Shown here in pieces: positions 1,419-16,841 of a stretch of 26,216 nt of DNA. Source of the DNA: a virus. Lineage: Duplodnaviria; Heunggongvirae; Uroviricota; Caudoviricetes. The position numbers and the translations under genes are program-made. Where the stretch lies: IMG/VR virus record IMGVR_UViG_3300027126_000001; one strand, given 5' to 3'. The notes beneath the pieces were generated by a model. That model was not told the origin of the DNA. It did not search any database and saw only the letters and a program-made list of their open reading frames with translations. The first letter of the stretch is position 1. Each line of letters starts with the position of its first letter.

Positions 1419-3053
1419 TTACATGAACATGCTAGGATCTACTCCTGCGTCTTGTCCATCTTTCTCTTTTATACTTGTGATAATACATTCTGTAATTAAC
1501 ATTGTTCCTGCTACTGATGCTGCATTCTCTAAAGCAAGTCTTGTTACTTTAGTCGGATCGATGATTCCTTCTGTGAGCATATTTACATACTCTCCAACTC
1601 TAGGATTAAACCCTTGCCAAATATCTCCGTCTACTAACCTTACCATTCTTTCGTTAATAGTGTCTTGAGTTTCACCTGCATTTAAAAGTATCTGTTCGAA
1701 TGGCTTTGTAATTGCTCTCCTTACGATATCGAATCCTTTTTGTTGATCTGGATGAGAAGCTACTGATGGATTGTTGTATAGGTATGCTGCTGCATTTAGT
1801 AAAGCGATACCACCACCTGGTAAGATTCCTTCTTGAAGTGCTGCTTTAGTTGCATGAAGAGCATCATCTACTCTATCTTTCTTCTCTTTCATTTCAACTT
1901 CCGTATGACCTCCAACATGAATCATAGCTACTCCTCCAATAAGTTTTGCCAATCTGTCCTGTAAGATTTCTTTCTCGTAAGGTGAAACTGTATTATCGAT
2001 TTGTTCTTTTAACTCTTCGATTCTTTTTGTAATAGCTTCTTCAGATCCTTTCCCATCTACAATGGTAGTATCATCTTTACCTACTGTTACTTTTCTAGAC
2101 TTACCAAACCATTCTAAGTTGAATTTATCTAGCTTCATTCCTTTCTCTTCTGATACAACTGTACCTCCTGTTAGAGCTGCAATGTCTTCTAGCATAGCTT
2201 TCTTCTTGTCTCCAAATTCAGGAGCTTTAACTGCTACTACTCTCAAGATACCTCTCATCTTGTTTACAACAAGTGTTGATAAAGCCTCTCCATCAATATC
2301 GTCTGCAATGATAAGCAAGTCTTTATTTTGTTGTGATACTGATTCTAATAATGGAAGCATCTCTTTTACATGTTGGATTCTTTTATCTGTGATAAGAATT
2401 AAGGGATTGTTTAGCACTGAAGTCATGGTACTATTATCTGTAACAAAGTATGGAGATTTATATCCTCTATTGAATTGCATACCCTCTACAGTTTCAAGAT
2501 AAGTCTCTCCTGTTTTGGATTCTTCAATAGTTACTAATCCATCTCTACCAACTTTATCCATTGCTGTTGCAATAAGATTTCCTACCTCTGGATCGTTGTT
2601 ACCTGAGATTGTTGCTACTTGTTTGATTTGCTCTTCATCTGTGATGTCTTTCGAGTATTGATCTCTCAAGTAGTTGACTACTGCTTTAGTTGCAATGTCG
2701 ATACCTCGCTTTACTTCTACTGCATTTGAGTTATCCAACTCGGCTAAACCTTGTTTGTAAATCTCTCTTGCAAGTAATGTTGCTGTTGTAGTTCCATCTC
2801 CAGCCAATCTTGCTGATTCGATTGCAACTTGTTTTACAGCTTGTGCTCCAGTATTTTCGATTGGATCTTCCAATACTACTTCTTTTGCTACTGTTACACC
2901 ATCCTTTGTTGATGTTGGATTACCTCCCTGTTGTTGAATGAATACATTCCTACCTGAAGGCCCTAATGTACATACAACTGCGTCCGCTAACTGGTCTACT
3001 CCTGAAAGTAGCTTCTCTCTGGCTTCTTTTGAAAAACTAATTTGTTTACTCAT
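1419..3053 (-). CDS. groL: Chaperonin GroEL
   Basis: TLGPSGRNV, TKDGVTVAKE, AGDGTTTATLLA, GGVAMIHVG and GIIDPTKVTRLALENAASVAG motifs; 544 aa. Confidence 0.98.
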   Translation of the reverse strand: MSKQISFSKEAREKLLSGVDQLADAVVCTLGPSGRNVFIQQQGGNPTSTKDGVTVAKEVVLEDPIENTGAQAVKQVAIESARLAGDGTTTATLLAREIYKQGLAELDNSNAVEVKRGIDIATKAVVNYLRDQYSKDITDEEQIKQVATISGNNDPEVGNLIATAMDKVGRDGLVTIEESKTGETYLETVEGMQFNRGYKSPYFVTDNSTMTSVLNNPLILITDKRIQHVKEMLPLLESVSQQNKDLLIIADDIDGEALSTLVVNKMRGILRVVAVKAPEFGDKKKAMLEDIAALTGGTVVSEEKGMKLDKFNLEWFGKSRKVTVGKDDTTIVDGKGSEEAITKRIEELKEQIDNTVSPYEKEILQDRLAKLIGGVAMIHVGGHTEVEMKEKKDRVDDALHATKAALQEGILPGGGIALLNAAAYLYNNPSVASHPDQQKGFDIVRRAITKPFEQILLNAGETQDTINERMVRLVDGDIWQGFNPRVGEYVNMLTEGIIDPTKVTRLALENAASVAGTMLITECIITSIKEKDGQDAGVDPSMFM

Positions 3054-3055
3054 AA

Positions 3056-3361
3056 CTACTCTTGTGATTCTTTAATTGTTGCTAAGATCTCTCTGTCTGG
3101 TGTAATAAAGTATTCCTCTCCTTCAAAATCAATTCGTAACGAACCGATCTTAGGTACTAGTATTACATCTCCTACTTTAGCTTTGACTTCTATCCATGTA
3201 CCGAACTCTGATTGTCGACCTGGACCTACTGCGATAACTTCTCCCATTTCTGGTTTTTCTTTTCCCATGTCCGGAATAATAATCGTTCCGTACATCTCTT
3301 CTCCTGTCTGTACAGGTTTGATAAGAACTCTATCGTTCTGTGGTGATAACTTTTTTGGCAT
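3056..3361 (-). CDS. groS: Co-chaperonin GroES
   Basis: PQNDRVLIK, GIIIPD-like mobile loop (GTIIIPD), KPEMGEVIAVGPG, VKVGD-like segment; immediately upstream of groEL. Confidence 0.95.
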   Translation of the reverse strand: MPKKLSPQNDRVLIKPVQTGEEMYGTIIIPDMGKEKPEMGEVIAVGPGRQSEFGTWIEVKAKVGDVILVPKIGSLRIDFEGEEYFITPDREILATIKESQE

Positions 3362-3431: not shown

Positions 3432-3701
3432 CTAAAACTTATTGTCTAGATACGGTACACCCATAAAACCATGTATCCCTTCATTTTCTAACTGTATCTC
3501 ATACTGCTGCCAGTCTTCAGGTGATTGTGTTAAATCTCGCCAAGCAACATCGACACTGTATTTATCTGAGACTATAAAGCCCTCTTCGTCCTGTATAATA
3601 TGCCCTATTTCTACTATACTATGTAAATGGTACCCCAACTGTTGTATCTTTTGTTGAGCTTGTTGTTGTGTATCAAATTCGTATTTTGCAATTCTTATCA
3701 T
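3432..3701 (-). CDS. Hypothetical protein, companion of the fibre-like gene
   Basis: 89-aa ORF whose start overlaps the stop of 3698..5062 (ATGA). Confidence 0.65.
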   Translation of the reverse strand: MIRIAKYEFDTQQQAQQKIQQLGYHLHSIVEIGHIIQDEEGFIVSDKYSVDVAWRDLTQSPEDWQQYEIQLENEGIHGFMGVPYLDNKF

Positions 3702-5062
3702 GATGTTATTTCTACTAATTGTGAGTCTGTTAGTCTAGTTTTCCATAGTGCTGCGTAGTCAATACTAGCATCACCTTGTTGCCCTGAGTACCAGCTTCCT
3801 ACGTCAATTCTACTAAGCGGATTCCCAAAAGTCAACGTGCTTGTATTTGTTGCTACTTGTGCTCCATTTATATATAATTTAGAGTTACTTGAGCTATATG
3901 CTACAGCTACTCTAACACTGCCAGAGTATGATAGTGGACTTGTAAGTATTACTGTATCTCCTGTAGGTGTTGAACCTGATACGTGCACTGCTATTTGTGA
4001 ACTCTCCTCTCTACTGATATACACAAATGGTCCTGCACCCCCTGCCGGTATTGGGTATGACAGCCCTAGAATAATTGGATTTGATGCTGATATTGGAGCT
4101 GTAGGTAGATTTGCTTGAACGTAAATGGTACCCTCCTGCTGTCCTATTAAATCACTTGACGATGTTCTAAATAGTGAATCGGCTGTTCTTGTTACTGATT
4201 CACTGTTAGGTGTTTCGATATAACTTGTAGAGCCAAAGCCTCGTTCAAGTTGCAGGTACGCCAAGTCATGGTAAAAGCTTGCACTTAGGTATCTTCGGTT
4301 ATTTAGTGTACCTGACCCTGTAGTTGGTGCTAAGTATATAAAACGTGATGTACCACTGCCACTGTGATTAAACGTTATGTTTAGTTTGTAACTTGCGGTG
4401 TTATCGAGTTTTTCGTAAGATGCTGTGTAATATTTACTGTCAAATGTGCTTGTAAATATTCTACTTTCAAAATCAAATGCTATTTGCGGGTTTGATAGAC
4501 CTGTTGTAGCAGATCCTGTGGCCCATACAAAACTGCTAAGATACATCCACAAATTACGTACATTACCTTGTCTGACTACTGTGGAAAGTGTGTAGTACCC
4601 CGATCCTGATAGTGGCCCTAATCGGTAGGCGAGGCTTCCTGTTATATCACTTCCCCCTGTTCCCGCTGTTCCCGCTCTACTTCCTGTGTAGGTAAATCTT
4701 GTTGCAGGCAACCCTGCTATAGGTGCAATACTTTGTGTCTGCAGTAAGTAGTCTATACCGTCTCTCCATGCTTTGTTTGCAGACGAAGCAGTCACATACG
4801 GTGTTCCTGACAGCCCTATTTCGTTCAAGCTCTGTCTTTCTATCAATGTAGATGGGTAGGTACTTCCGGAATTATATGTCAACCTAGGTACATCTACTGA
4901 TCGTGTCACAAATTGACTCTGACTTGTAAATACATACCCTGAGGAGTTTCTTACAAATTGAAAATCCCCAGAGGTTGTGTTGTTAGGTATAGCTGTATAG
5001 ATGTCTCCTACTTTAAACCCTGTAGGAGTTATTAATAAACTTGCACTCTGTATTAATGTCAT
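3698..5062 (-). CDS. Putative virion fibre/decoration protein with C-terminal LamG/ConA-like lectin domain
   Basis: Ser/Thr/Gly-rich; PRLTY..., LQLERG..STSYIET....VTRTAD segment, and C-terminal VAVAYS..SKLYING..., IDYAALWKTRLTDSQL typical of phage LamG-like domains. Confidence 0.55.
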   Translation of the reverse strand: MTLIQSASLLITPTGFKVGDIYTAIPNNTTSGDFQFVRNSSGYVFTSQSQFVTRSVDVPRLTYNSGSTYPSTLIERQSLNEIGLSGTPYVTASSANKAWRDGIDYLLQTQSIAPIAGLPATRFTYTGSRAGTAGTGGSDITGSLAYRLGPLSGSGYYTLSTVVRQGNVRNLWMYLSSFVWATGSATTGLSNPQIAFDFESRIFTSTFDSKYYTASYEKLDNTASYKLNITFNHSGSGTSRFIYLAPTTGSGTLNNRRYLSASFYHDLAYLQLERGFGSTSYIETPNSESVTRTADSLFRTSSSDLIGQQEGTIYVQANLPTAPISASNPIILGLSYPIPAGGAGPFVYISREESSQIAVHVSGSTPTGDTVILTSPLSYSGSVRVAVAYSSSNSKLYINGAQVATNTSTLTFGNPLSRIDVGSWYSGQQGDASIDYAALWKTRLTDSQLVEITS

Positions 5063-5076
5063 ATAATTTCGTATAT

Positions 5077-5089
5077 ATTATAAATAGTA
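5077..5089 (-). promoter_or_regulatory. Second-class (possibly late) upstream motif TACTATTTATAAT
   Basis: Identical 13-mer also at 14957-14969 and 16300-16312, each 9-15 nt upstream of a start codon. Confidence 0.55.
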
Positions 5090-5102
5090 CATAGTATGGC
5101 TT

Positions 5103-7436
5103 TTAATGACCCTCGGCGAAGTTGTTTGCTATCTGCGGTGGTGCTTTTAAGGTTACTCCTGGAAGTTGTGTTGTGTTTTCCATCAACTCTTGTACATAAG
5201 GCATGAACATTTCTGCTTGATCTTCTCTTATGTTTATAATCAACTGGTCATGAATCTGAGCTTGTACTCTGGCATCTACTCCTAGTTCTTTTGCTTTTCT
5301 GTTAATTTGAATTGCTGCTCTGTTTACAACCGCTGCTGCAAGTGATTGTAACTGGTAGTTCAAGCAGTTGTTCAATCCATTTCGATAATCCCTATACATC
5401 TGCATTACAGGATCTTTCCCGTAGGTAGTCTCTAAATCCTTTCTAAATCTCCAATCTAATACTTGATCTCCAAATTTCTCAAAGATAAGTTTTACTTTTG
5501 GTAAGTGACGAATACGTCCTACTTTATTCTGAATAAAGCCATGCTTCTTTACCTGCTCTCTAGAGTTGATTCTCCATTCTTTTAATTGAGGAAAACCATC
5601 CAAGTATCCTTCCACTAAAGTGTCTGCTTCTTTCTGAGATATGTCTAAAGTCTTTGCTAATGCATATGCTTCCATTCCGTATGCAATTCCTAATGAGTAG
5701 GCTTTAGCTTGATTTCTTTTTACTGGGTCTAATTTTTTTAAAAAGATAGGTGATTTAGTATCAGGTGAAACACCGTTTGGATATTTTACTTTATCTTGAT
5801 CCAACTTCTCAGTTCTAATAGCGACAGTAGAATAGAAATCCCATCCGTTGTTAAAAATTTCTTGAAGATTAATATCACCTGCTACAGAAGCAAAGCAGTG
5901 AGGTTCTAGAGAAGTATAGTCATTATCGATTAACTTTCTTCCTACTCCTGCAATTAAAAACTCTCTTACTACATTTGTGTATTTTACAAGCAGTGGGGTA
6001 TCTTCTCCTTCCTCTTTAGGTTTAGGTAATTGCTGAGCATCTGAACCGTATCGTCCTGATACTGTACCGTTTTGTTTGTAATAGAAGTAATACCTTCCAT
6101 CCTCTTGTCCATCTAGAAACCTGTCGATGTAGGTTGACTTAATCTTTAGTAACTTATTATATGTTCTAAGATTATTTGCCCACTCGTATGTCTTAGACAA
6201 CTCCTCTAACATATCCATATCGAATTGATCTTGACCTTTTTTAGTCTGAGTGAGAGGTTTAATGCCCATGTACTTAAATGCAATCTCACCTAAGTGTCTT
6301 TTAGATTGAATATTCAAATACTCTCCTTCATTCTCTTCCTTCCACATTGACATAGAGATTCTAACAACTTCCATCTCATCTAATAGAGATAAGTCTCCTG
6401 TTAGTAAAAACTGCTTTACGTTACTCTCCTCTAACTCCTCAATAGCTTTTTTAGTTAATGTATACTTTCCGGTCTTAGCACTTCTTTCTAATGGAAGAGA
6501 ATGGAGCATAATTAAGTTCTGTGCCCAATTTCCTTTACTAGAAGGCGGGTAAGTATTTAGAGCTGTATCAACTACCCATTCTTTCGCTTCTGGGATATCT
6601 AAAATACTGTTAATTACGATTCTCTTATTTAATTCTAAATCGTTTGTAATATCCTCTTTAGTCTTTTCCAGTAATGGAAGATCTAGAGCTACCCCTAATT
6701 CCTCCATAGGTACTGTTACTTCTTTATAGAGAGGCATTACTTCGTCTTCAAAGAAGAATTTTTCTAGTTCTTCCTCTTTTAGTACTTTTATAAAGTGATT
6801 ACAAACTCTTAAAGTTAAGTCCGTATCAGCAGCAGCATACTTGGAAAGGATTGCCATATCTGCTTTAAAGATTTCGTAAAGATCTTTTGTAGTCGATCCA
6901 CCATTCTTCTTTATCGATTCCTTCAACTCCAACTGCTCTTGGTTGGCTGCTTTTTCAACATCTAACCCTATGTGCTGCTGGATGGAGATTGCTAAAGGCT
7001 TTAGTCCAAACACACCCATACCGGCACCCTCTTCCTGTACTGTATGCACAAGGAGCGCTGTATCTACCCAAAGATCTTCCAGTAATGATACTCCATAGAA
7101 GTTCTTAGTAATACGGCAGTCAAAAGAAGCATTGTGCATTACTAGCCTCTTACCCTTTAACATCGGTAGTAGCTTTTTAGTAATACCATGTGCTCCTTTT
7201 CCGCCAATGGTACATTCCTCCAATTGATTTGTTTCTGTATTCCATTTCTGAGTTGGAAGGTAAAATCCTATTCCTTCCTCGCCTGATACAGACCATCCTA
7301 CAACTTGATCTTTTCTTACGTTCAATCCTGTTGTTTCAGTATCGTAAGCAAGAACTTCTGATTGATTAATATGTTCGATAAGGAGGTTGATAGTCTCAAT
7401 ACTGTCGACGTGGTAGTACCTCTTTTCTATTTGCAT
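5103..7436 (-). CDS. polA: Family A DNA polymerase with 3'-5' exonuclease domain
   Basis: Exo I DTETTG, Exo II HNASFD, Exo III YAAADT; polymerase motifs TVSGRYGS, DYTSLEPH (A), RNQAKAYSLGIAYG (B), QIHDQL (C). Likely start MQIEKR at 7436 (ORF track starts at 7478). Confidence 0.95.
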   Translation of the reverse strand: MQIEKRYYHVDSIETINLLIEHINQSEVLAYDTETTGLNVRKDQVVGWSVSGEEGIGFYLPTQKWNTETNQLEECTIGGKGAHGITKKLLPMLKGKRLVMHNASFDCRITKNFYGVSLLEDLWVDTALLVHTVQEEGAGMGVFGLKPLAISIQQHIGLDVEKAANQEQLELKESIKKNGGSTTKDLYEIFKADMAILSKYAAADTDLTLRVCNHFIKVLKEEELEKFFFEDEVMPLYKEVTVPMEELGVALDLPLLEKTKEDITNDLELNKRIVINSILDIPEAKEWVVDTALNTYPPSSKGNWAQNLIMLHSLPLERSAKTGKYTLTKKAIEELEESNVKQFLLTGDLSLLDEMEVVRISMSMWKEENEGEYLNIQSKRHLGEIAFKYMGIKPLTQTKKGQDQFDMDMLEELSKTYEWANNLRTYNKLLKIKSTYIDRFLDGQEDGRYYFYYKQNGTVSGRYGSDAQQLPKPKEEGEDTPLLVKYTNVVREFLIAGVGRKLIDNDYTSLEPHCFASVAGDINLQEIFNNGWDFYSTVAIRTEKLDQDKVKYPNGVSPDTKSPIFLKKLDPVKRNQAKAYSLGIAYGMEAYALAKTLDISQKEADTLVEGYLDGFPQLKEWRINSREQVKKHGFIQNKVGRIRHLPKVKLIFEKFGDQVLDWRFRKDLETTYGKDPVMQMYRDYRNGLNNCLNYQLQSLAAAVVNRAAIQINRKAKELGVDARVQAQIHDQLIINIREDQAEMFMPYVQELMENTTQLPGVTLKAPPQIANNFAEGH

Positions 7437-7455
7437 AACTGATTTTATTATTGTG

Positions 7456-7486
7456 TAAAGGTAATAAAAGAGCTGCAATTAAGCAA
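7456..7486 (-). promoter_or_regulatory. Bacteroidota sigma-A-type promoter upstream of polA
   Basis: TTG(7486-7484)-N20-TACCTTTA(7463-7456). Confidence 0.6.
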
Positions 7487-7961
7487 CTCTTTCTTCAAAC
7501 TTTTTTATAATTACATTTGTTTCTACAGGTAACCATACCCCAATTGCTCCGTTCCTCAGGTATGACATCTTTATATTACTCTTTGATACTCTGTCATTAA
7601 TGTAATTTCTCATTTGATTTACATTATAGTAGTATACTTTTTCGGTAACTAAACTGTAACATATAATCCAATCCGACTTAGTTGTGTGAAACCATCCTAA
7701 TACCCCTTCTTTCTTATATAGTTCTAAAAAAGTTAGACCTGTTTCTGAGATATTTGTTTTAATATCCGCCCTATCCCAGGCATTAGTTTCTGTGTTTAAA
7801 AACTCTATATCTAAGCCTTTTTGTTGGTAGGCTTTGTTTTCGGTATAGTCTGTTAAATCCCGTACCTGTAACTTTTTGGATAAAATCTCAATAACGGCTT
7901 GTTCACCAAGACCTCCCTTTTTTAGATTCTCCAGGAAGGTCTGTTGTGTACCTGCCTCCAT
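7479..7961 (-). CDS. Putative PD-(D/E)XK restriction-endonuclease-fold protein
   Basis: GGLGEQAV helix, GLDIEF and ADIKTN (D-x-K) motifs, followed by FLELY. Confidence 0.55.
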   Translation of the reverse strand: MEAGTQQTFLENLKKGGLGEQAVIEILSKKLQVRDLTDYTENKAYQQKGLDIEFLNTETNAWDRADIKTNISETGLTFLELYKKEGVLGWFHTTKSDWIICYSLVTEKVYYYNVNQMRNYINDRVSKSNIKMSYLRNGAIGVWLPVETNVIIKKFEERVA

Positions 7962-8887
7962 TATTGTCGTAATGTTTTTGACATTCTACATTTAATGTCT
8001 GTAAAGAAGCTTGGAATTAATTCTTTATGTGAAGCTCTAATTGGATTAATATCTAATCCTCCTCTACGAGTATAAAGACAAGCTACCATTAATTCTTCTG
8101 GACTGTAAGCTTCTTTTAAGTGCATATAAATCATCTCACAAATTTCTTCATGGAAGTGACTTACTTGTCTATGACTTACAATATATTTTGCTAATGATTC
8201 TAAATCAGGAACAACTCCTGCTGTTGGCTTAATGTGAATAAATACATCACCCCAGTCTGGTTGGTTTGTTACTCTACAATTTGATCTTAATAGATTAGAC
8301 TGTACTTTTATTTCTCCAATTTCAAAGTCTTCAGCTACTTCTTCTGCTTTTAACTGTGTAGCATCTGAATGGTAAGAAGTAAATTCGATTTTGTTTAAGT
8401 CAACTAAAGCATCTAGTGGTGCATATCCTTTGAAGGCATAGCTTGGAGAATGATCTGAAGTGAACATCTCTACTTGTACTTTTGTTTGTAGTAAGTCAGA
8501 TAAGTCTTTCTTTACTCTTTGTTTTAGTAACTTAATACATTCATGATCTGTATCTCCTAATTGTGTCATATTGAATGAATTCAAATACAATTTAATTGAT
8601 TTAGACTCTACGTGAAGTTTTGAATCTGCTGGATACCAAATCTTTAGCATTCCAACTACTGGAAGTCCTTTTGTAGTAATTGCAGATACTTCATATGCAT
8701 TCCATACATCTCCTCCTACGAATGGAAGATTATTATCGTCAATTACATACGCTTCTCTATTCAAGTAACGTGGAATTTCTACCAATAGGCTCGGATCATA
8801 AGTATCGCTATAACCTGCTCCACCTACTTGTCCTAGATGCTTTCCTGCAATCTTTACAACTTCTGCTTGATTTAATTCTTGTGTCAT
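7961..8887 (-). CDS. queF: NADPH-dependent preQ0 reductase QueF (two-module type)
   Basis: QueF motif ESKSIKLYLNSF, catalytic SNCRVTNQPDWG, FHEEICE and YTRRGGLDINP. Confidence 0.93.
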   Translation of the reverse strand: MTQELNQAEVVKIAGKHLGQVGGAGYSDTYDPSLLVEIPRYLNREAYVIDDNNLPFVGGDVWNAYEVSAITTKGLPVVGMLKIWYPADSKLHVESKSIKLYLNSFNMTQLGDTDHECIKLLKQRVKKDLSDLLQTKVQVEMFTSDHSPSYAFKGYAPLDALVDLNKIEFTSYHSDATQLKAEEVAEDFEIGEIKVQSNLLRSNCRVTNQPDWGDVFIHIKPTAGVVPDLESLAKYIVSHRQVSHFHEEICEMIYMHLKEAYSPEELMVACLYTRRGGLDINPIRASHKELIPSFFTDIKCRMSKTLRQ

Positions 8888-8888
8888 A

Positions 8889-9413
8889 TTATTTTATGTA
8901 GTTTAATATTTGTTCAACTCTTTGATTAGGACTTCCTGTTACTGTTAAAAAATCTCCTCCAGCAAACTTAATTGACTTTAAGTTAATCTGAAATTGTTTA
9001 TCAATTGCTTCTCTCCATCCTTCATTCACACTTCTTACTCCATCATCTACTGATGCAAATTCGATAGGGAAGTAAATAAAATGTGTATACTGATGCCTAA
9101 CTCTTACCCAAGTATCTAATATGTAATCATATGCGCTAGTAGATAAGTTATCCATATAGGTAGAGTATACTACCAAATCCAAATAACATCTATCTAAGAT
9201 TACATCCTTAGGAGCTAATAGAGCTTCTAAATGGAAAGAAGAAATAGCAAGCTGTGTTTCAGAAGTTCCTGCTTCATTGATAGGAAATCCAAATTTACCA
9301 ACCGTTCTTGTTGATTCATTTATGAAATCATACTCAGGTAATTTACTTTTAAGTAATTCATATACTGTAGTCTTTCCTACTGATGATGCTCCTACTAATG
9401 CTATTCTTTTCAT
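8889..9413 (-). CDS. P-loop nucleotide-kinase-like ATPase (AAA_28/NadR-like)
   Basis: N-terminal Walker A GASSVGKTT, ILDRCYLD, DDGVR. Likely start MKRIALVG at 9413. Confidence 0.8.
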   Translation of the reverse strand: MKRIALVGASSVGKTTVYELLKSKLPEYDFINESTRTVGKFGFPINEAGTSETQLAISSFHLEALLAPKDVILDRCYLDLVVYSTYMDNLSTSAYDYILDTWVRVRHQYTHFIYFPIEFASVDDGVRSVNEGWREAIDKQFQINLKSIKFAGGDFLTVTGSPNQRVEQILNYIK

Positions 9414-9415
9414 AA

Positions 9416-9943
9416 CTAATTTTTTAAGAAATCTACCCAAAGACTTACTGATATACTATGTAATATATGAAATAATTCTTCAATCTCCAACCCTTTTATA
9501 GAAACTTTTCTACTACGAAGTATCTCTCCTTCATCTACTCCTTCTGTTACCCTATGAATAACACACCCAGAAGATTCTAATCCTATATCAAAAGCTTTTT
9601 GCTGAGGATCTTTTCCTTTTAATTCTGGATACTCAGTTATAAGTCCTGGATGCCCGTTATAGATTTCAAATCGATTACAGATATCTGCAGGCATGATTCG
9701 TAACCATCCATGTAGAGTTACCAAAGGATTTTCGTAACCGCTTAGTATCATTAACAATTCTTCCTCTGTAGGGTTATTCTCTACAAAAACTAAATGTTTA
9801 TCCTCTAAAGCCGGATGAATCTTTCTAAGATGCTCTGGTCTTTCGTTTGTTACTATCATATCAGGCCATCTTCCTAAAAGCTTTGATATTTCTACTATTT
9901 CACTTCCTGTCTGTGAGAAGAATGCTATGTGAGGTCTATACAT
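9416..9943 (-). CDS. PurN-like formyltransferase (candidate preQ1 formyltransferase, DpdN-like)
   Basis: YNGHPGLITEYPELKG and SGCVIHRVTEGVDEGEIL match the GAR-transformylase N-x-H-P and H-x-V-x3-D-x-G motifs. Confidence 0.85.
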   Translation of the reverse strand: MYRPHIAFFSQTGSEIVEISKLLGRWPDMIVTNERPEHLRKIHPALEDKHLVFVENNPTEEELLMILSGYENPLVTLHGWLRIMPADICNRFEIYNGHPGLITEYPELKGKDPQQKAFDIGLESSGCVIHRVTEGVDEGEILRSRKVSIKGLEIEELFHILHSISVSLWVDFLKN

Positions 9944-10118
9944 TTTTTACAGGTATTATGTTATCTTCATCTACAAAAAAGAACCGTTTCCCGACCCTTA
10001 AACTATATGCTGTTTTTCTTCCTAAATCTAAATTAATATATGCAAATACTTCTGCATCTATTATTTCATTATCAGAATTTAAAAGCACTTTTTCTCCTAT
10101 TTTATACCTTCTTTCCAT
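9936..10118 (-). CDS. Hypothetical 60-aa protein (SH3-like beta pattern possible)
   Basis: Overlaps both neighbours within the operon; YKIGEKVLL start. Confidence 0.6.
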   Translation of the reverse strand: MERRYKIGEKVLLNSDNEIIDAEVFAYINLDLGRKTAYSLRVGKRFFFVDEDNIIPVKNV

Positions 10119-10896
10119 TTACAAGCCATCTAAATTTATGGATGTTCTGAAGAATCATATTCGTATCTTCTGGTACGTAATTGATTAGTTCAAATAACTT
10201 TTGAGACTCTTTTGACCATAGTCCATCTGCTCTATACTCAACTCCTTTTATACCATGTACAACTGGATTAGAAGTATCTAAAGAATAGATCCATTTATAA
10301 TCTGAGTAGAAAGAAAACTCTTGAGGTAATCCACATCCTAATAGGTGATGCTTCTTCTCTTCGTTTATTACACCGTCTCTCAATAAGTCTCCCAGTAGCT
10401 TAACCCTTCCTAGCATCCAACTAACATACCTGTTAGGATGAGAAATTGTCTTTGTATAATACGAATAGTCGAATGAAATTGCAATCATATCTACATTTGC
10501 AATTTTATCCATATACTCATAACAAGTCTTAATTTGACTATAAGTCTTTCCTTGAACAACTCCTATCTTCTTTCCTGGAAGATCTCTATATTTGTAATTC
10601 CATTCAGTCATTTGCTTAACAGTCTTCTTTGCATCTTCTAAAGCATCTGGAACTATATACCAATCTGGTTTTAATTCTAGTACCCATCCTGCAAACTTCT
10701 CTGCATCAAAAGCTTCTTCTAATTCAAATATAGAATTATCTAAAATAATTTCTCTACCTGCTTCTTTAGCTTCTTGAAACTGTTTTAAGTATTCTGGATC
10801 TTCTTCAAATAAATGTACAAGTGCATAATCATAATCAGTATGCTTTTGTACTTCTTTAAATATACTCTTCGGTGATTCGTGTGCTATCTTAATCAT
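10102..10896 (-). CDS. dpdA: TGT-fold 7-deazaguanine transglycosylase (DpdA-like, compact)
   Basis: Motifs aligning by eye with TGT: ILDNSIFE (DSGGF), IVPD, GVVQG, HHLLG (YLMG), SLDTSNP (catalytic FD). No Cys-rich Zn site. Located in the que cluster. Confidence 0.72.
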   Translation of the reverse strand: MIKIAHESPKSIFKEVQKHTDYDYALVHLFEEDPEYLKQFQEAKEAGREIILDNSIFELEEAFDAEKFAGWVLELKPDWYIVPDALEDAKKTVKQMTEWNYKYRDLPGKKIGVVQGKTYSQIKTCYEYMDKIANVDMIAISFDYSYYTKTISHPNRYVSWMLGRVKLLGDLLRDGVINEEKKHHLLGCGLPQEFSFYSDYKWIYSLDTSNPVVHGIKGVEYRADGLWSKESQKLFELINYVPEDTNMILQNIHKFRWLVNGKKV

Positions 10897-11092
10897 TCTC
10901 TTCTGATGTTATAGTTTCTAAATCTTCTATTAATCCTCCTAATTGTGATTGCAATGCTTCCATAGCTTCTGCAATTTGATTATCAATAGCCATTTCAATT
11001 GCCTTGTACGCTATAGACACCGGTATCATCTCTGTCTTTAGATCTTCTATAAAGATCTTATTCTTTTCTATATACTCTACTGCCTCTTGCAT
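10889..11092 (-). CDS. Hypothetical protein
   Basis: 67-aa acidic helical ORF coupled to both neighbours. Confidence 0.65.
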   Translation of the reverse strand: MQEAVEYIEKNKIFIEDLKTEMIPVSIAYKAIEMAIDNQIAEAMEALQSQLGGLIEDLETITSEEND

Positions 11093-11616
11093 TACTCTCC
11101 TGTTAACTGTTTTAAGTATGACTTCTGAAGTTCTTTGTCTGTGAAGAACTGTTTTAAGTTAGGACGGAAGTAGTTTACATTCTTCATTACTTTTCTATCT
11201 CTTGTTCTATAAACAACAAAATAGTCTCCAACTTTTTCGTAATGACACTCCTCACCTTGCTCACTCGATCTTTGAATGACAGTTGCTTTAGCTTCTTCTT
11301 CTGTTTGGCAAGCTTTAGATAAATTTGACGCTTGAACCTCTTGATAGGCTGGCCATATCTTATCCTTAAGGCCATGTAACATAGTACCGTTCCCAGTGGC
11401 AACATAAGTAATATCGCAAAGAGCGTCCAGAACCTCAACGATGTCTCCTCTTTCGCAAGCTTCTCTATATTCTTCAAGTTCTTCAAGGATGAAATCGTAT
11501 ACGAACTCCCACTCTTTTCTCTCTGGTACTGTTGGTTCATAGTTATTAGGTTTGCCCATTACGGCATTAAATTCTTCTACCTCGTCAATAAAGGGTACTT
11601 TTGGATCTGTTATCAT
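11092..11616 (-). CDS. MazG-like/PRA-PH all-alpha NTP pyrophosphohydrolase
   Basis: VEEFN..., ILEELEEY...EVLDALCDITYV (EExxE...ExxD metal-binding motif), VQASNLSK. Confidence 0.85.
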   Translation of the reverse strand: MITDPKVPFIDEVEEFNAVMGKPNNYEPTVPERKEWEFVYDFILEELEEYREACERGDIVEVLDALCDITYVATGNGTMLHGLKDKIWPAYQEVQASNLSKACQTEEEAKATVIQRSSEQGEECHYEKVGDYFVVYRTRDRKVMKNVNYFRPNLKQFFTDKELQKSYLKQLTGE

Positions 11617-11631
11617 AACTTTACTTTTTAT

Positions 11632-11662
11632 TTAATATAGGAAATTGCCTCCGAAGAGGCAA
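11632..11662 (-). promoter_or_regulatory. Bacteroidota sigma-A-type promoter for the NTP-PPase/dpdA/formyltransferase/kinase/queF run
   Basis: TTG(11662-11660)-N20-TATATTAA(11639-11632). Confidence 0.7.
11645..11662 (-). terminator. Hairpin terminator with UUCG loop
   Basis: TTGCCTC-TTCG-GAGGCAA followed by TTT on the minus strand; a T7 run flanks it on the plus strand. Confidence 0.6.
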
Positions 11663-11668
11663 CTTTTT

Positions 11669-11869
11669 TTATTCTTCAATTACTTTTAGAATTTTAGATT
11701 GATTAACTCCTACTACTGAAAAGTTAGACTCTCCGTCGAATTCTTTATAGATTTTTGCTTCTGCTTCTGTAGCTGAAACTGCATCTACTAGATATAATTC
11801 TTTTACTCTTTGGATACGACCTCTGTCGTTTTCGTGCTCCAATTGCACGGTTACTTGCCAATAATTCAT
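11669..11869 (-). CDS. DUF4494-like small protein
   Basis: WQVTV..E...KELYLVDAVSATEAEAKI resembles the Bacteroidota DUF4494 pattern YLVDAxSxTEAEA. Confidence 0.55.
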   Translation of the reverse strand: MNYWQVTVQLEHENDRGRIQRVKELYLVDAVSATEAEAKIYKEFDGESNFSVVGVNQSKILKVIEE

Positions 11870-11880
11870 AGTGTTTAATT

Positions 11881-12588
11881 TTAGTTTTTATAACCTTTTG
11901 TGAACTGATAGAACTCTGCTCTTGCTGAATCTTCATTTAAGAAACATCCAGTTAACTTTGCAGTCTTCATTGAAGCTCCTTCATGCTTTACTCCTCTACA
12001 GCTTACACAATTGTGACCTGCTTCAATCATAACTGCTACCCCTAGATTACCTTCACAGATTTTATCTACTGCATTATGAATTGCAACTGTTAATTGTTCT
12101 TGGATTGCTCCTCTACGGGCAAACTGCTCTACAATTCTATTTAGTTTTGAAAGCCCTACTACCTTTCCATCTGGTGAAGGAACATAACCAATGTGAACTT
12201 TTCCTGTAATAGTCTGGTGGTGGTGAGAGCACATTGAGGTAAGAGGAATATTTCCTTCGAATACAATTCCATCATAACCATCTGAAGGGAATGCTGTAAC
12301 TCTTGTTAATGGTTCAAATCGTCCGGCCCATAAATCGTTTACATAAGCCTTTGCAACTCTTTTAGGAGTATCAGAAGAGTTCGGATCATTACTCCAATCG
12401 CATCCTAAAGCTGAAAGGAATTCACCAAATGCTACTGCTGCTTTGTCGATAATATCCTGCTTTTCTTCTTGAGTTAACCTTGCTTCTGGTCCTTCTATTA
12501 ATTGCTTTTTAGCCAATTGAGAGGAGATACCATTTGCGAATCCGGCTTGTACTAGTTCTGTACCGTCGATAAATTTTTTACTTGACAT
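11881..12588 (-). CDS. folE: GTP cyclohydrolase I
   Basis: DTPKRVAK, SMCSHH, GLSKLNRIV, RRGAIQEQLT, HNCVSCRGV. Confidence 0.96.
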   Translation of the reverse strand: MSSKKFIDGTELVQAGFANGISSQLAKKQLIEGPEARLTQEEKQDIIDKAAVAFGEFLSALGCDWSNDPNSSDTPKRVAKAYVNDLWAGRFEPLTRVTAFPSDGYDGIVFEGNIPLTSMCSHHHQTITGKVHIGYVPSPDGKVVGLSKLNRIVEQFARRGAIQEQLTVAIHNAVDKICEGNLGVAVMIEAGHNCVSCRGVKHEGASMKTAKLTGCFLNEDSARAEFYQFTKGYKN

Positions 12589-12628
12589 ATAAGATTGTTT
12601 TTATGGAGGTTCTACGACTCCGTTTCTA

Positions 12629-12659
12629 TTAATATAACACTTTTTATTTTATTATACAA
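12629..12659 (-). promoter_or_regulatory. Bacteroidota sigma-A-type promoter upstream of folE
   Basis: TTG(12659-12657)-N20-TATATTAA(12636-12629). Confidence 0.7.
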
Positions 12660-13055
12660 CTACTTTTTTAAATAATCCTGTATACTTTCACTATCACTTC
12701 TCTCCCAAGGATAAACAATCCACTCTGTTCCTGTTTCCTTTGCATAAAAGTCAGGAGTAAATGATGCTGTAGGTTTGTAGTGAAGTGTTGCTGTAAATCC
12801 TCCTACTGCTCTTTTTAGTGTTTCTCCTGTGTCGCAAATGTCATCCACTACCAAAGTATCCTTATTTGTTTTACTTACGTAAGGTATGTTTAATTTATGT
12901 GAGATCATTACTGCTGGTATCAATCCTCCTCTTTGTATTCCTGTAATAGATTTGATCTGTGCGCCTGATTGCTTTATTGTATTGCATAGGTCTTCAACTA
13001 AAATGTTAATATCATCCCAGCTTAAATAAACCTTGTTTCCTACTTTTAGTGCCAT
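12660..13055 (-). CDS. Purine phosphoribosyltransferase (Gpt/XGPRT-like)
   Basis: LSWDDI, GIQRGGLIPA, PRPP-binding LVVDDICDTGETL, WIVYPWE. Confidence 0.9.
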   Translation of the reverse strand: MALKVGNKVYLSWDDINILVEDLCNTIKQSGAQIKSITGIQRGGLIPAVMISHKLNIPYVSKTNKDTLVVDDICDTGETLKRAVGGFTATLHYKPTASFTPDFYAKETGTEWIVYPWERSDSESIQDYLKK

Positions 13056-13336
13056 TATATTCTCGCTATTGTTATACCTTCTGCTCCTACAATTTTCATC
13101 TGCGAAATCATATCATCTGCTGGTTGTTGTGGATCTGTTTCCTCCAACACATAGTTGATAAGTTCATCTATTGATACCTTGTCTTTGAATCCTGTCTTAC
13201 CTGAGTCACTTACTATTAACTCTAAATCTCCCTCTTTGGTTAATTTATAGTCCCAAATATAAAGCCCATCTGCTTTTGGGTAACTTTTTGAAAGCTCTCT
13301 GTCTCCTGCTAAATCTATTAAATCTTTTAGTGTCAT
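13055..13336 (-). CDS. Hypothetical protein
   Basis: 93-aa ORF tiling in the operon. Confidence 0.65.
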   Translation of the reverse strand: MTLKDLIDLAGDRELSKSYPKADGLYIWDYKLTKEGDLELIVSDSGKTGFKDKVSIDELINYVLEETDPQQPADDMISQMKIVGAEGITIARI

Positions 13337-13351
13337 AACTGTGTTTTTTAT

Positions 13352-13543
13352 TTACTTAATTGAATACTTGGTTTTACCGTCTGGTGATTGTGCTGCTATT
13401 TCTCCGTTTGCTAGAACTGTCAGTTGTAGGAAGTAGGTTGTTAGTAGTAGGTGTTTTACTTGTGCTGCTTCTATCTGTCCTTTCTTCCATAATGTATGAA
13501 GTACTGTCAATGTTTCAAACTGTGTTGCGTTTCTTACTGCCAT
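13352..13543 (-). CDS. Hypothetical protein
   Basis: 63-aa ORF on the coding strand filling the gap. Confidence 0.6.
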   Translation of the reverse strand: MAVRNATQFETLTVLHTLWKKGQIEAAQVKHLLLTTYFLQLTVLANGEIAAQSPDGKTKYSIK

Positions 13544-13550
13544 TTTACTT

Positions 13551-14135
13551 TTACTTTACTACCATTCTAACCATACATGCTCTACTTGCCTCAGGCATAT
13601 ATTCATCTGGGTTTGATAAGACTTTCTCAAGTTTATCACGAAGAGATTGTTTCATCATTTCATCTTGATACTCTTTGCTGCCAATATCTTGTGGAAATGT
13701 AGGATTGAAAGTAAGAGTGATTGTTCGGTAAGGTTCAAAATTTTCAGGATTATATATTAAAGGTCCAAATGTGCATCCCTCTTTTACCGGTTTGAAAATC
13801 ACTGTAGGGTCGTACATTTTTGGAGAAAACATAATTTGGTAAACATATGCGGTTTTTCCTTCATAGATTAGATCATTATCTAATAGTTTATGTGTGGACG
13901 TTTGAAAAGCCTTACCTGGTTCATTAGCTCCCCCAGTGTGAGTTATCCATTTTACTTCTTTAAAATGGAAATGTTCTTTTAAAATCCCTTCTGCAAGTTG
14001 TCTCTGCACTTTAGACATTTCAACTACGGCAGTAGGTTCTACTACAGTTGGGGATGAGTATGTAGCAAAGTGATGTCTATTGTCTGTGATAGGACCTAGA
14101 AGGTCAATAAATTTTTGTGTGATTTGATTTGTCAT
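13551..14135 (-). CDS. Hypothetical protein
   Basis: 194-aa ORF, no recognised motif. Confidence 0.7.
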   Translation of the reverse strand: MTNQITQKFIDLLGPITDNRHHFATYSSPTVVEPTAVVEMSKVQRQLAEGILKEHFHFKEVKWITHTGGANEPGKAFQTSTHKLLDNDLIYEGKTAYVYQIMFSPKMYDPTVIFKPVKEGCTFGPLIYNPENFEPYRTITLTFNPTFPQDIGSKEYQDEMMKQSLRDKLEKVLSNPDEYMPEASRACMVRMVVK

Positions 14136-14139
14136 AGTA

Positions 14140-14442
14140 TTATACTTCTCTTTGGTCTACTCCGTACTTCTCTTTAATTCCCATTACAAATTCCTTTGTC
14201 ATTCTACCCATAGCACCACTTGTCATAAATGGACTATTAACTTCATCGTAATGCTCTCTCCTATAAACGACTACTTCGCTTTTAAGTTGGTTATCTTCAA
14301 AATAGAAGAGCATACCTGGGATAAATTCTTTATCCTTTGTTGCCTCTAGAAATTTAGCCTTTGATTCTTCATACCGTTCTGGTAGAGGTTTTAGGTCTTT
14401 TAAGTTTAGGCTGCTGAAGTCATTTATTTGCTCTTTGTTCAT
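14140..14442 (-). CDS. Hypothetical protein
   Basis: 100-aa ORF with ATGA overlap to the HNH gene. Confidence 0.65.
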   Translation of the reverse strand: MNKEQINDFSSLNLKDLKPLPERYEESKAKFLEATKDKEFIPGMLFYFEDNQLKSEVVVYRREHYDEVNSPFMTSGAMGRMTKEFVMGIKEKYGVDQREV

Positions 14443-14945
14443 TTTTCTTTACTGTTTTTATAAGGTTTTCTTTTTTGTCGCCTTCCTTCTTCGTATGCTC
14501 TTTTTAAGCTCTCTGATACTTTTTTGGATCTGGCTTCTGGATCTTTAAGTGGGGATTTGATTGCTTTGTGGGATGTTTTTCGAATCTTATCTACTGTTTC
14601 TGGTTTCATTCCCTGTACCCATCCCTCCTCTATAATTCTAGGATCATTTACTTTCATTTGACGTTGCCTATCTCCTTTGTGAAACCACTTACTTCCTGCA
14701 AGTACCCAAGTCTCAAAAACTGTTCCCTCTTTCATTTTTCTCATTCTACTTGCCACTGCACTTGCTTCGGCTATATCTCCTTGAATAAGATGGATGTTGT
14801 AATGCTCTTCTATGGATACACATATTAGATTTTCTATAGAATTATTTTCTCTATTTCCATCTATATGATGTATTTCGTAAGTCCATCCATTCTTATCTTT
14901 AGGAATATCTCCATAATGCTTTTTCCAAATTCTTCTATAATCCAT
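14439..14945 (-). CDS. Free-standing HNH homing endonuclease
   Basis: EIHHIDGNRENNSIENLICVSIEEHYNIH HNH motif with a basic C-terminal DNA-binding tail. Confidence 0.85.
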   Translation of the reverse strand: MDYRRIWKKHYGDIPKDKNGWTYEIHHIDGNRENNSIENLICVSIEEHYNIHLIQGDIAEASAVASRMRKMKEGTVFETWVLAGSKWFHKGDRQRQMKVNDPRIIEEGWVQGMKPETVDKIRKTSHKAIKSPLKDPEARSKKVSESLKRAYEEGRRQKRKPYKNSKEK

Positions 14946-14956
14946 ACTATTGTTTT

Positions 14957-14969
14957 ATTATAAATAGTA
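14957..14969 (-). promoter_or_regulatory. Second-class upstream motif TACTATTTATAAT
   Basis: Exact copy of the 13-mer, 12 nt upstream of the HNH start. Confidence 0.55.
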
Positions 14970-14991
14970 GGCATTAACCAAAAGGCATAGA

Positions 14992-15771
14992 CTAAACTTC
15001 TCGAGCGTCTTGGAAAGCTATTATGTGAGGTCTCCAAGTCAACCTGTATCCATTATCTCGAACCCAATCAAACATTTTTGGATATGATTTGAATAAAGCC
15101 TCTCTTGTATCTCCAGCTGGCATGAAATATACTTTATCTTGTGGTATGTCTAATATCTTAATACATGCCATAATCTCTTCCAATGCTTCTTGATCCTCTC
15201 CGTCCCATACTGGTTTTAAGTGGTAGTCAGAGTGATAAGCAATTGATTTGGACATTGCATCGTAATTAAGTCTTAGCTTATTATGTTGTTTGATCATTCT
15301 TTCGTCTGTAATGTCTCCTTGAGGTGTTGCAATGCCAATCTTAGGGACAGAATTGCTGAACTTAGGGGAGATTGATAATAGATTAATTGGGTAATCCGTT
15401 TCAAGAAAATGACTTCCTTCGGTCTCAATTGTAATGAAAATATTTCTTTCATGTGCAAAATGTGTTAATTCGTTTACTAATGCTGGATGCATTGTAGGTG
15501 ATCCTCCTGTTAGCATCATCTCTGTGATGTGAGGATTCTTATCGTACATGTCGATAATGTCTTGAAAAGTGGAACTTCCCTTTTCTGGATGAATAGAACT
15601 ATACCAACTGTCGCACCATCCTCCATCTCCGAACCAGCAGCGGTGAGTACATCCAGTGGTGCGAATTACTACTGTAGGATATCCCGCTCTACTTCCCTCA
15701 CTCTGAACTGCAGTATACAATTCAATAATAGGAAGTGTCTTATTAAAATCCTCAATTCTTTTTAATCCCAT
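14992..15771 (-). CDS. queE: 7-carboxy-7-deazaguanine synthase QueE (radical SAM)
   Basis: VQSEGSRAGYPTVVIRTTGC, LTGGSP, TIETEG, SISPK, PRxHI-like end (WRPHII). Cluster motif CTHRCWFGDGGWC. Confidence 0.92.
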   Translation of the reverse strand: MGLKRIEDFNKTLPIIELYTAVQSEGSRAGYPTVVIRTTGCTHRCWFGDGGWCDSWYSSIHPEKGSSTFQDIIDMYDKNPHITEMMLTGGSPTMHPALVNELTHFAHERNIFITIETEGSHFLETDYPINLLSISPKFSNSVPKIGIATPQGDITDERMIKQHNKLRLNYDAMSKSIAYHSDYHLKPVWDGEDQEALEEIMACIKILDIPQDKVYFMPAGDTREALFKSYPKMFDWVRDNGYRLTWRPHIIAFQDAREV

Positions 15772-16291
15772 TTTTATTTCTATTTTTTAATGTTTCTGAT
15801 ATTTTTCTCTTTTGTTCCTCTGACATCGGAATGCCTTTATTTGTTCCTACCATTCCTTTCTTTGCTTTAGAAATCTTTTCTCCAAATTCCTTTGGCATTA
15901 TCTTTCCTGCATTTGAAATTCTTTTTCCTTCTTGGTAGGCTCTTTTTAGTCCTTCTGAGATTCTTTGTTTATGCTCTATGCTTTTTTTTGCTATCTGCTC
16001 TTTTATAATCCTATACATGTTTGCAGAAACCTTATACCTATTTTGATTAGGAGCTTCCATACTTGCCATCATCCATAAAGCATACTTTATTTTTTGACTC
16101 TTAGGATAAATCTCAGTAAGAAGTAGATGTGCTATAAAATGCTCTTTGGCTGTCAGTTCTACTAAATTATTTATATCATCTGTTCCTTTTACGCATTTAG
16201 GAATAATGTGATGAAGCTCTTTATATCCTTCGACTGTCTTTCTTTCTTTAGCTTTTAGTATTAGCTGGCTGTAAATTTTTTGATAATCCAT
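15752..16291 (-). CDS. Free-standing HNH homing endonuclease (MobE-like) with NUMOD3-type repeats
   Basis: ELHHIIPKCVKGTDDINNLVELTAKEHFIAHLLL; C-terminal SEEQKRKISETLK-type repeats. Confidence 0.87.
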   Translation of the reverse strand: MDYQKIYSQLILKAKERKTVEGYKELHHIIPKCVKGTDDINNLVELTAKEHFIAHLLLTEIYPKSQKIKYALWMMASMEAPNQNRYKVSANMYRIIKEQIAKKSIEHKQRISEGLKRAYQEGKRISNAGKIMPKEFGEKISKAKKGMVGTNKGIPMSEEQKRKISETLKNRNKNGIKKN

Positions 16292-16299
16292 ACTCTTTT

Positions 16300-16312
16300 A
16301 TTATAAATAGTA
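16300..16312 (-). promoter_or_regulatory. Second-class upstream motif TACTATTTATAAT
   Basis: Exact copy of the 13-mer, 9 nt upstream of the HNH start. Confidence 0.55.
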
Positions 16313-16333
16313 GTAGATTTCCGTTACCAGCTG

Positions 16334-16645
16334 TCACACCTGTTTTTTATTCATTTCATCTCTAGCATACAGAGATATAAACTCAGGTGTTGTTCTTCCT
16401 TTAGGTATTAGTATTTCTGCTAGGGGAGCTGCTATTGAAGTGTCTCCTGGATGTAGTATTAGTATTTCTTCATCCATGTCAAGTGTTACTAGAAACTGTA
16501 CTACCTGTCTTACCGTTAAAGGTTTTCTCTGATCTTGATTAATTACTAGTTTTGTTTTACCTTCTAATTTATCTGCTAGAGATATCTTTCCTGTATTATC
16601 ATCTAAAAAACCATTCTCTTGTAGAAACTTATTATCCAATGTCAT
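16334..16645 (-). CDS. Hypothetical protein
   Basis: Likely start MTLDNK at 16645 (ORF track starts at 16666). Confidence 0.6.
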   Translation of the reverse strand: MTLDNKFLQENGFLDDNTGKISLADKLEGKTKLVINQDQRKPLTVRQVVQFLVTLDMDEEILILHPGDTSIAAPLAEILIPKGRTTPEFISLYARDEMNKKQV

Positions 16646-16841
16646 AATGTTCCCAAATAGCCTCAATATGCTTTCTTAATTTACTCATAGCTTCATCAGC
16701 TTCTTTACATAGCTGAACTAACTCTGGATCTTCTTCTCCGTTGTATCCGTAATTCTCTATCCAATATCCAAATCCTTGATTATCGATTTCTCCAAATAAT
16801 TGTTCTGCTTCTTCTTCTGATAGTTTAATTTTACTCTCCAT
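16632..16841 (-). CDS. Hypothetical acidic protein
   Basis: 69-aa ORF overlapping the queD stop. Confidence 0.65.
   Translation of the reverse strand: MESKIKLSEEEAEQLFGEIDNQGFGYWIENYGYNGEEDPELVQLCKEADEAMSKLRKHIEAIWEHYDIG

Follow-up and report, generated by a model that had tools for sequence, protein, structure and literature searches.

The closest described relatives of the system considered here are the Flavobacterium immuto phages. For one of them, vB_FspM_immuto_2-6A, PMC10516641 reports DNA without a deoxyguanosine (dG) peak, that is, the formyl-preQ1 deoxynucleoside (fdPreQ1) replaces all dG; the same text is the origin of the names DpdA3, for a tRNA-guanine transglycosylase (TGT)-like protein, and DpdN, for a formyltransferase. 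The locus we compare with it is a block of genes at positions 5103–13055 of a 26,216-nucleotide stretch of virus DNA (class Caudoviricetes; IMG/VR record IMGVR_UViG_3300027126_000001), the whole of which we call the window. Genes were called in this interval with Pfam, PHROGs, and NCBIfam and encode, from 5103, PolA, a 160-residue protein, QueF, an AAA_28 kinase, a PurN-like formyltransferase, the TGT-like protein, MazG, a DUF4494 protein, FolE, and a Gpt-like phosphoribosyltransferase (PRTase); all are on the minus strand, most abut or overlap, and the window as a whole is one long minus-strand gene run. Aligned with the DNA of three immuto phages, the block shows 86.6% identity across 94% of its length, the gene order from PolA to PRTase is the same, and the proteins are 93.6% (DpdA3), 97% (MazG), 85% (kinase), 80% (PRTase), and 95% (PolA) identical to those of immuto_2-6A. 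Judged by its sequence, the block encodes the system with which an immuto-type Flavobacterium phage replaces dG in its DNA by fdPreQ1, and is a further member of a published system. On account of these identities, complete replacement of dG by fdPreQ1 is expected here; in the 86.6%-identical phage, the near-complete replacement that the initial annotation had proposed has already been established by experiment (PMC10516641).

Since the system is known, what matters is how the phage reaches replacement of every G. In PMC10516641 the authors propose post-replicative insertion and argue that all 7-deazaguanine modifications are post-replicative because a DpdA is present in every such phage; in the searched text no role is given to the kinase or the PRTase, and a MazG-like gene is mentioned only for phage phiST. 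An earlier suggestion, made in 2019 for Campylobacter phages (PMC6884629), was a 'modified dGTP' route, but it was not retained afterwards. The initial annotation had placed the route in the nucleotide pool and considered its enzymology not worked out. The latter agrees with our literature search, in which no paper testing a nucleotide-level route was found, but the gene cluster and the modification were already published and the idea had been aired.

Our comparison leads to a proposal that we believe and doubt in about equal measure, that is, that the substrates of the system are free nucleotides, as they are when T4 makes hydroxymethylcytosine (hmC). MazG would convert dGTP to dGMP, which both removes the competitor and supplies the sugar-phosphate; DpdA3 would replace guanine by preQ1 in dGMP (or in deoxyguanosine); DpdN would formylate the aminomethyl group; the deoxynucleoside kinase/thymidylate kinase-like enzyme would phosphorylate the product, which host Ndk would take to the triphosphate; and the phage polymerase would incorporate the analogue, giving complete replacement. 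The Gpt-like PRTase would return the freed guanine to GMP and then GTP for FolE. With the same even balance, we suggest that DpdA3 is not a DNA transglycosylase but the first TGT-family enzyme to carry out base exchange on deoxynucleotides or deoxynucleosides that are free, and that with the kinase and a dGTP-removing hydrolase it makes up a pre-replicative pathway to 7-deazaguanine deoxynucleoside triphosphates (dNTPs).

The evidence that carries this proposal is the kinase beside DpdA3. It is encoded at 8889–9413 (minus strand; the open reading frame (ORF) runs to 9440, and alignment places the likely start at 9413) and matches AAA_28 (E 6.9e-12) and phrog_2107, 'thymidylate kinase' (E 2.3e-23), as expected for a P-loop (deoxy)nucleoside or deoxynucleoside monophosphate (dNMP) kinase-like enzyme. 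Its Walker A region reads LVGASSVGKTT, and the alignment shows no variation in the Walker A motif, in the DR motif, or at the lid arginines, R136 and R174. The best Foldseek matches of its model (pLDDT 87) are the nicotinamide-riboside kinase domain of NadR, the kinases for deoxycytidine, deoxyguanosine, and deoxyadenosine, and thymidylate kinase, each of which has a free nucleoside or nucleotide as substrate; no polynucleotide kinase is among the 50 matches listed. The protein is therefore predicted to act on free nucleosides or nucleotides and is a candidate kinase for the modified nucleotide.

We surveyed the neighborhoods of 80 IMG/VR loci with DpdA3 at 51–97% identity, 40 of which have at least 6 kb on both sides (full-flank loci; counts out of 40 refer to these). 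A check of gene co-occurrence had been suggested in the initial annotation; the kinase is present in 40/40, equal to QueF, DpdN, and FolE, and the other components less often (MazG, 31/40; PRTase, 26/40; PolA, 32/40). A core cassette, FolE-(x)-DpdA3-DpdN-kinase-QueF, recurs, T4-like myoviruses included, and the kinase abuts DpdA3 or DpdN in loci L007, L088, and L090. The 80 loci are interrelated and their common synteny is partly inheritance, so distant lineages weigh more. In Campylobacter phage CP220, DpdA3 is flanked by gp055, an HD hydrolase fused to an AAA_33 kinase, and by gp057, an AAA_28 protein 31% identical to the window kinase; in Cellulophaga phage phiST, its neighbor CGPG_00066 is AAA_18 kinase-like and MazG is two genes away; in Chryseobacterium phage MA9V-3, the upstream neighbor is AAA_18/AAA_33; and in Aeromonas phage Ahp1, a DpdA3-like gene is followed by a T4 gp1-type dNMP kinase (DNMK, E 1.7e-17) and then by a dCTP-deaminase/dUTPase-fold protein. 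Thus, four P-loop kinase families occur beside DpdA3 in Campylobacter, Cellulophaga, Chryseobacterium, and Aeromonas phages, and the NTP hydrolases that accompany DpdA3 systems have three folds (MazG, HD, and dCTP-deaminase/dUTPase); such non-orthologous replacement argues for a required function. A constant kinase next to DpdA3 suggests, but does not prove, that the swap takes place on free nucleotides before replication and not on finished DNA.

The Aeromonas locus is an observation in its own right. In Ahp1_CNU-2021 (L095:5995-7978) the DpdA3-like protein is 23% identical to DpdA3, the kinase gene follows it directly, and genes for FolE and a radical-SAM protein lie upstream; every one of these genes is annotated as hypothetical. 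Ahp1_CNU-2021, a member of the Straboviridae, probably has 7-deazaguanine DNA that has gone unrecognised.

CP220, with 2'-deoxy-7-amido-7-deazaguanosine (dADG), and phiST, with 2'-deoxy-7-deazaguanosine (dDG), share with the window a DpdA3 homologue, complete replacement of G, and a nucleotide kinase and an NTP hydrolase by DpdA3. They differ in the final base (ADG or DG), in having neither QueF nor DpdN, and in their kinase families (AAA_18, AAA_33); CP220 differs further in having an HD hydrolase in place of MazG, and no PRTase homologue was found in it. The varying partners (HD and two kinases in CP220; MazG and one kinase here) might reflect entry at the nucleoside or at the monophosphate level. 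The HD hydrolase and two kinase domains of CP220 would fit nucleoside-level entry and, speculatively, match a report of ADG nucleoside in infected cells, cited in PMC10516641.

The kinase is also where the published alternative meets a difficulty. Under that alternative DpdA3 is a very efficient DNA transglycosylase that exchanges every G for preQ1 in finished or nascent DNA, DpdN formylates the base in DNA, and nucleotide supply in general (dNTP balance, GTP for FolE) is the task of the kinase, MazG, and PRTase. It offers no role for a kinase of free nucleotides whose constancy equals that of QueF and FolE and of which four families are found next to DpdA3 in distant lineages. As controls we used three loci of the DNA-acting DpdA type of Queuovirinae; no nucleotide kinase or NTP hydrolase family of this kind was found within 7–10 kb of these genes. 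In addition, the classic complete base replacements of known route (hmC in T4, hydroxymethyluracil in SPO1, diaminopurine (dZ) in S-2L, and deoxyuridine in PBS1) use the nucleotide pool, which we count against a post-replicative origin. On the other side, homologues of both accessory enzymes occur apart from the system: the kinase family is found in Streptomyces phage records, and MazG relatives in others (e.g., Tenacibaculum phage PTm1 and jumbo phages), that give no DpdA3 match. With the evidence from DpdA3 itself, given next, we consider post-replicative insertion possible but rather unlikely.

DpdA3 (10102–10896, minus strand; 264 residues) has no Pfam match and is identified as a minimal TGT/DpdA-fold base-exchange enzyme by phrog_19058 (E 7.9e-54) and by its fold. 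In addition to the near-identical immuto protein, CP220-group proteins are 41–43% identical to it over 98% of its length (the CP220 homologue 42%). An alignment of 40 representatives (36–64% identity) was the basis of an AlphaFold model (pLDDT 96.8), the top 50 Foldseek matches of which are all TGT; in VIA-align comparisons the archaeosine TGT (Z 18.1), Salmonella DpdA (7ui4, Z 17.7), and the bacterial TGT (Z 16.1) score above generic barrels (at most 15.5). D53, D84, and D207 are invariant in 40/40 diverse homologues, and the HLLG..P..F...SxDxSxP motif that includes D207 aligns to the nucleophile region of the Salmonella DpdA chain 7ui4. D207 would thus be the nucleophile-region aspartate, and by motif resemblance D53 and D84 may serve in acid/base catalysis and base recognition. 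Because the three aspartates are invariant and the nucleophile motif is shared with Salmonella DpdA, base-exchange chemistry is very likely.

The substrate of that chemistry is the point on which the two explanations divide. DNA-acting DpdA enzymes (the bacterial DpdA/DpdB system, PMC10164549, and the Queuovirinae type) have the same TIM barrel, three aspartates, and nucleophile-region motif. The bacterial enzyme differs in having a 128-residue insertion, Ins8, a zinc site, and an ATPase partner, all absent here; Ins8 and the zinc site are the DNA-binding surface of bacterial DpdA. The Queuovirinae type differs in giving partial, motif-specific modification and, in the three control loci, in its neighbors. 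The initial annotation had described the TGT-like protein as compact, and we considered whether small size and loss of zinc point to a small-molecule substrate. We rejected this argument: the zinc motif CxCxxC is present in 0/133 DpdA3 proteins and also in 0/121 VpKK5-type DpdA proteins, which act on DNA, lack the zinc subdomain as well, and are only ~40 residues longer than DpdA3. Net charge does not discriminate either (median pI 5.5 for DpdA3, 6.1 for the Queuovirinae type).

Insertion into DNA is favored by the retained DpdA/TGT catalytic aspartates, by the identity of the best solved sequence relative of DpdA3, the DNA preQ0 insertase DpdA, and by the statement in PMC10516641 that all DpdA tested so far act on DNA. 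It is disfavored by another result in that paper, that is, DpdA3 gave no activity in the E. coli plasmid assay for DNA insertion in which other DpdA types worked. Among the structural neighbors of DpdA3 is 9ntn (Z 14.0), Cap10 bound to CdnD; Cap10 belongs to the transglycosylase family but has been remodelled so that its substrate is a protein (preprint 10.1101/2025.04.06.647259), so the fold is not confined to polynucleotides. FolE, QueE, QueD, and QueF are encoded in the same window as DpdA3, and the neighborhood evidence points to a nucleotide substrate. The branch is large: its metagenomic members, clustered at 50% identity, form more than 1500 clusters. One DpdA3 fusion (P0244) was considered as a kinase fusion on account of 'nucleotide kinase' PHROG matches; its C-terminal part has no P-loop, which leaves it a weak lead.

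MazG (11092–11616, minus strand; PRA-PH E 1.4e-10, phrog_671 E 8.4e-29) is an all-alpha NTP pyrophosphohydrolase whose metal motif, EExxE...ExxD...D, is conserved in 35 homologues. When the other hydrolases are counted with it, an NTP hydrolase seed is found in 36/40 loci. MazG is a candidate for the enzyme that would remove dGTP and supply dGMP; its presence is suggestive, not diagnostic.

DpdN (9416–9943, minus strand) is a PurN-like formyltransferase, predicted to act on the preQ1 aminomethyl group (Formyl_trans_N E 1.6e-13; best NCBIfam match PurN), and is syntenic with immuto gp067. Among 56 homologues, conservation is 90% or higher for the catalytic residues N96, H98, and D137 and for an SQTG loop near the N-terminus; this loop presumably corresponds to the site at which PurN binds the phosphate of its phosphoribosyl substrate, which would be compatible with a nucleotide substrate and is no test of it. 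DpdA3-DpdN fusions occur (P0176 and P0191; 447 residues) with the kinase immediately upstream. In two other tentative cases a GNAT-like domain is involved: in a locus with QueF (L040:6123-7079) the AAA_28 kinase is fused to such a domain in the place of DpdN, and P0232 (419 residues) is a DpdA3 with a GNAT-like C-terminal domain. We count the DpdA3-DpdN and kinase fusions in favor of the nucleotide-pool proposal, as linking the modification enzymes and the kinase. Both GNAT calls come from a sub-threshold Pfam match and language-model neighbors, and the two parts have no significant mutual similarity; such fusions might point to a DNA base not yet described, an N-acyl (perhaps acetyl) preQ1.

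The PRTase (12660–13055, minus strand; Pribosyltran) provides the setting for another alternative. Its solved relatives are purine and xanthine-guanine PRTases (1vdm, E 3.5e-12; Sulfolobus GpT; E. coli xanthine-guanine PRTase), its best NCBIfam match is xanthine PRTase (E 3.3e-15, below the cut-off of that family), and its phosphoribosyl pyrophosphate (PRPP) motif, DDIxDxGxT, and RGG loop are conserved. The initial annotation had listed it as a possible builder of the analogue, that is, the PRTase would join preQ1 or formyl-preQ1 to PRPP, the kinase and a ribonucleotide reductase would lead to the deoxynucleotide, and DpdA3 would have another role. The intact, conserved PRPP motif is consistent with such a route, as are PRTase homologues in the fully replaced Cellulophaga phiST group, where they lie two genes upstream of a ribonucleotide reductase gene; toyocamycin biosynthesis offers a model in ToyH, a PRTase that acts on preQ0. 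However, no homologue was found in the fully replaced Campylobacter DpdA3 phages (CP220 included), 14/40 full-flank loci lack one, the closest solved and curated relatives are xanthine/guanine enzymes, and the universally conserved DpdA3 would be left without a function. Moreover, in Queuovirinae, in which modification is partial, motif-specific, and at the DNA level, FolE carries the PRTase domain as an N-terminal fusion. The FolE fusion and the lack of a homologue found in Campylobacter phages tie the PRTase to FolE and not to complete replacement. We consider a PRTase-built analogue very improbable; most likely the enzyme recycles the guanine freed by base exchange to GMP and GTP.

The PRTase-FolE fusions are widespread (e.g., Vibrio phage VpKK5 gp32, L092:6998-7900); they occur in many Vibrio, Pseudomonas, Stenotrophomonas, and Sphingomonas phages and are annotated just as GTP cyclohydrolase I.

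PolA (5103–7478, minus strand), the last gene of the block, is a family A DNA polymerase with a 3'-5' exonuclease domain (DNA_pol_A E 4.6e-56; DNA_pol_A_exo1 E 2.3e-10). The description of it as divergent was borne out: apart from immuto PolA, no phage match exceeds 25–28% identity over the polymerase domain. The selective, DpoZ-like role proposed for it was not. PolA is within 10 kb of DpdA3 in 32/40 loci; in the T4-like DpdA3 phages none is seen close to the cassette, and a PolA gene is likewise a neighbor of DpdA of the DNA-acting type. PolA is highly divergent but has no special link to the system, and no selective DpoZ-like clade is evident. Family A polymerases readily accept 7-deaza-dGTP analogues; therefore, no special polymerase is needed. 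Thus, of the pool route as first suggested, the comparisons support the part that rests on the kinase fold, the constancy of the kinase, and the recurrence of kinases and hydrolases, and do not support the roles given to the PRTase and PolA.

Two complete replacements of established route provide parallels. For hmC, T4 encodes a dCTPase (gp56), a dCMP hydroxymethylase (gp42), and a dNMP kinase (gp1). If the nucleotide-pool proposal is correct, the likeness is close: a pyrophosphatase converts the dNTP to the dNMP, the dNMP is modified, and a phage kinase rephosphorylates it; in Ahp1, a true gp1-family kinase (DNMK) adjoins the DpdA3-like gene. The difference is that the modifying step here would be a TGT-fold base exchange instead of a thymidylate-synthase-like reaction. 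The dZ system (PurZ, MazZ, DatZ, and DpoZ) shares complete base replacement and pool-sanitising hydrolases of the MazG and HD types; it differs in its selective polymerase clade, for which there is no evident counterpart here, and in making its analogue with a PurA-like synthetase and not by base exchange.

In addition to the partly inherited synteny, several findings weigh against the nucleotide-pool proposal. The kinase fold fits nucleoside and monophosphate substrates alike. Of the Streptomyces phage records, 89 that give no DpdA3 match contain a member of the kinase family, and in the one such locus examined no que genes are nearby. MazG is missing from 9/40 loci and the PRTase from 14/40, MazG relatives occur in phage records that give no DpdA3 match, and large phages often cluster nucleotide-metabolism genes regardless. 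The nearest solved sequence relative of DpdA3 is a DNA-acting enzyme, and size, zinc, and charge do not separate the models because the DNA-acting VpKK5-type DpdA is likewise small, zinc-less, and acidic. Together with the view of the authors of PMC10516641, who propose post-replicative insertion, these points hold our confidence at the level stated.

The Streptomyces locus examined is in phage Enygma (L093:6222-7633), where the kinase homologue, 27% identical, directly follows an FkbM-type methyltransferase and a MazG gene is near DnaE; this homologue may serve another nucleotide-level modification or may simply be a dNMP kinase.

If the nucleotide-pool proposal is true, DpdA3 is a new kind of nucleotide base-exchange enzyme, DpdA3 and the kinase could be used for the enzymatic making of 7-substituted 7-deaza-dGTPs, and the rule in the literature that a DpdA gene signifies post-replicative insertion fails for the whole DpdA3 branch.

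The other genes of the locus complete the picture of the pathway. All genes named in the initial annotation are present and co-oriented as described; queF, placed directly after polA, is in fact second, as a 160-residue ORF (7479–7961, minus strand) intervenes. This protein has no Pfam, PHROG, or NCBIfam family; its Atlas structure neighbors, which include NOV_C and PDDEXK_5 clusters (TM 0.58–0.73), suggest a possible PD-(D/E)XK nuclease-like fold, and a homologue abuts DpdA3 in 13/80 loci. A homing nuclease, or one that attacks DNA lacking the modification, is a possible identity. QueF (7961–8887, minus strand; QueF_N E 3.2e-33, QueF E 1.3e-20, TIGR03138 E 1.9e-77) is the bimodular, NADPH-dependent reductase of preQ0 to preQ1, and FolE (11881–12588, minus strand; Pfam E 8.5e-45, NCBIfam folE E 2.1e-43) is GTP cyclohydrolase I, the first 7-deazaguanine step.

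Three short minus-strand ORFs had not been listed previously: a 60-residue ORF between DpdN and DpdA3 (9936–10118; no family, homologues in 6/80 loci), a 67-residue ORF between DpdA3 and MazG (10889–11092; no family, homologues in 32/80 loci), and a short DUF4494 protein or fragment (11669–11869; E 4.7e-12, covering only model positions 1–64 of 139). The pathway also continues past 13055. QueE, the radical-SAM 7-carboxy-7-deazaguanine (CDG) synthase (14992–15771, minus strand; Radical_SAM E 3.3e-07), is syntenic with the annotated QueE of immuto_2-6A, and QueD, 6-carboxytetrahydropterin synthase (16831–17292, minus strand; PTPS E 2.7e-14), is syntenic with immuto QueD. There is no QueC in the window; in the genome of the nearest relative it is located elsewhere. 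A promoter and terminator scan of 4800–17500 gave counts not above those of shuffled sequence, with models that do not cover Bacteroidota promoters.

Compared with immuto_2-6A, the window has several extra genes. HNH endonuclease genes (14439–14945 and 15752–16291) lie on either side of QueE, with uncharacterized ORFs (14140–14442 and 13551–14135) just before; at the corresponding site in immuto_2-6A, QueE is found directly after two small ORFs. The HNH genes look like homing-endonuclease insertions into the pathway operon. A 454-residue Laminin_G_3 (concanavalin-like) protein is encoded between GroES and PolA (3698–5062; G+C 0.42, compared with ~0.35), where immuto_2-6A has no gene. A phage-encoded GroEL (544 residues) and an ORF syntenic with immuto_2-6A GroES (1419–3361) are just downstream of the replication/modification block. 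Finally, a thymidylate synthase homologue of 392 residues is encoded at 18767–19945; the 266-position Pfam model spans residues 6–391, so the protein contains an insertion of ~120 residues.

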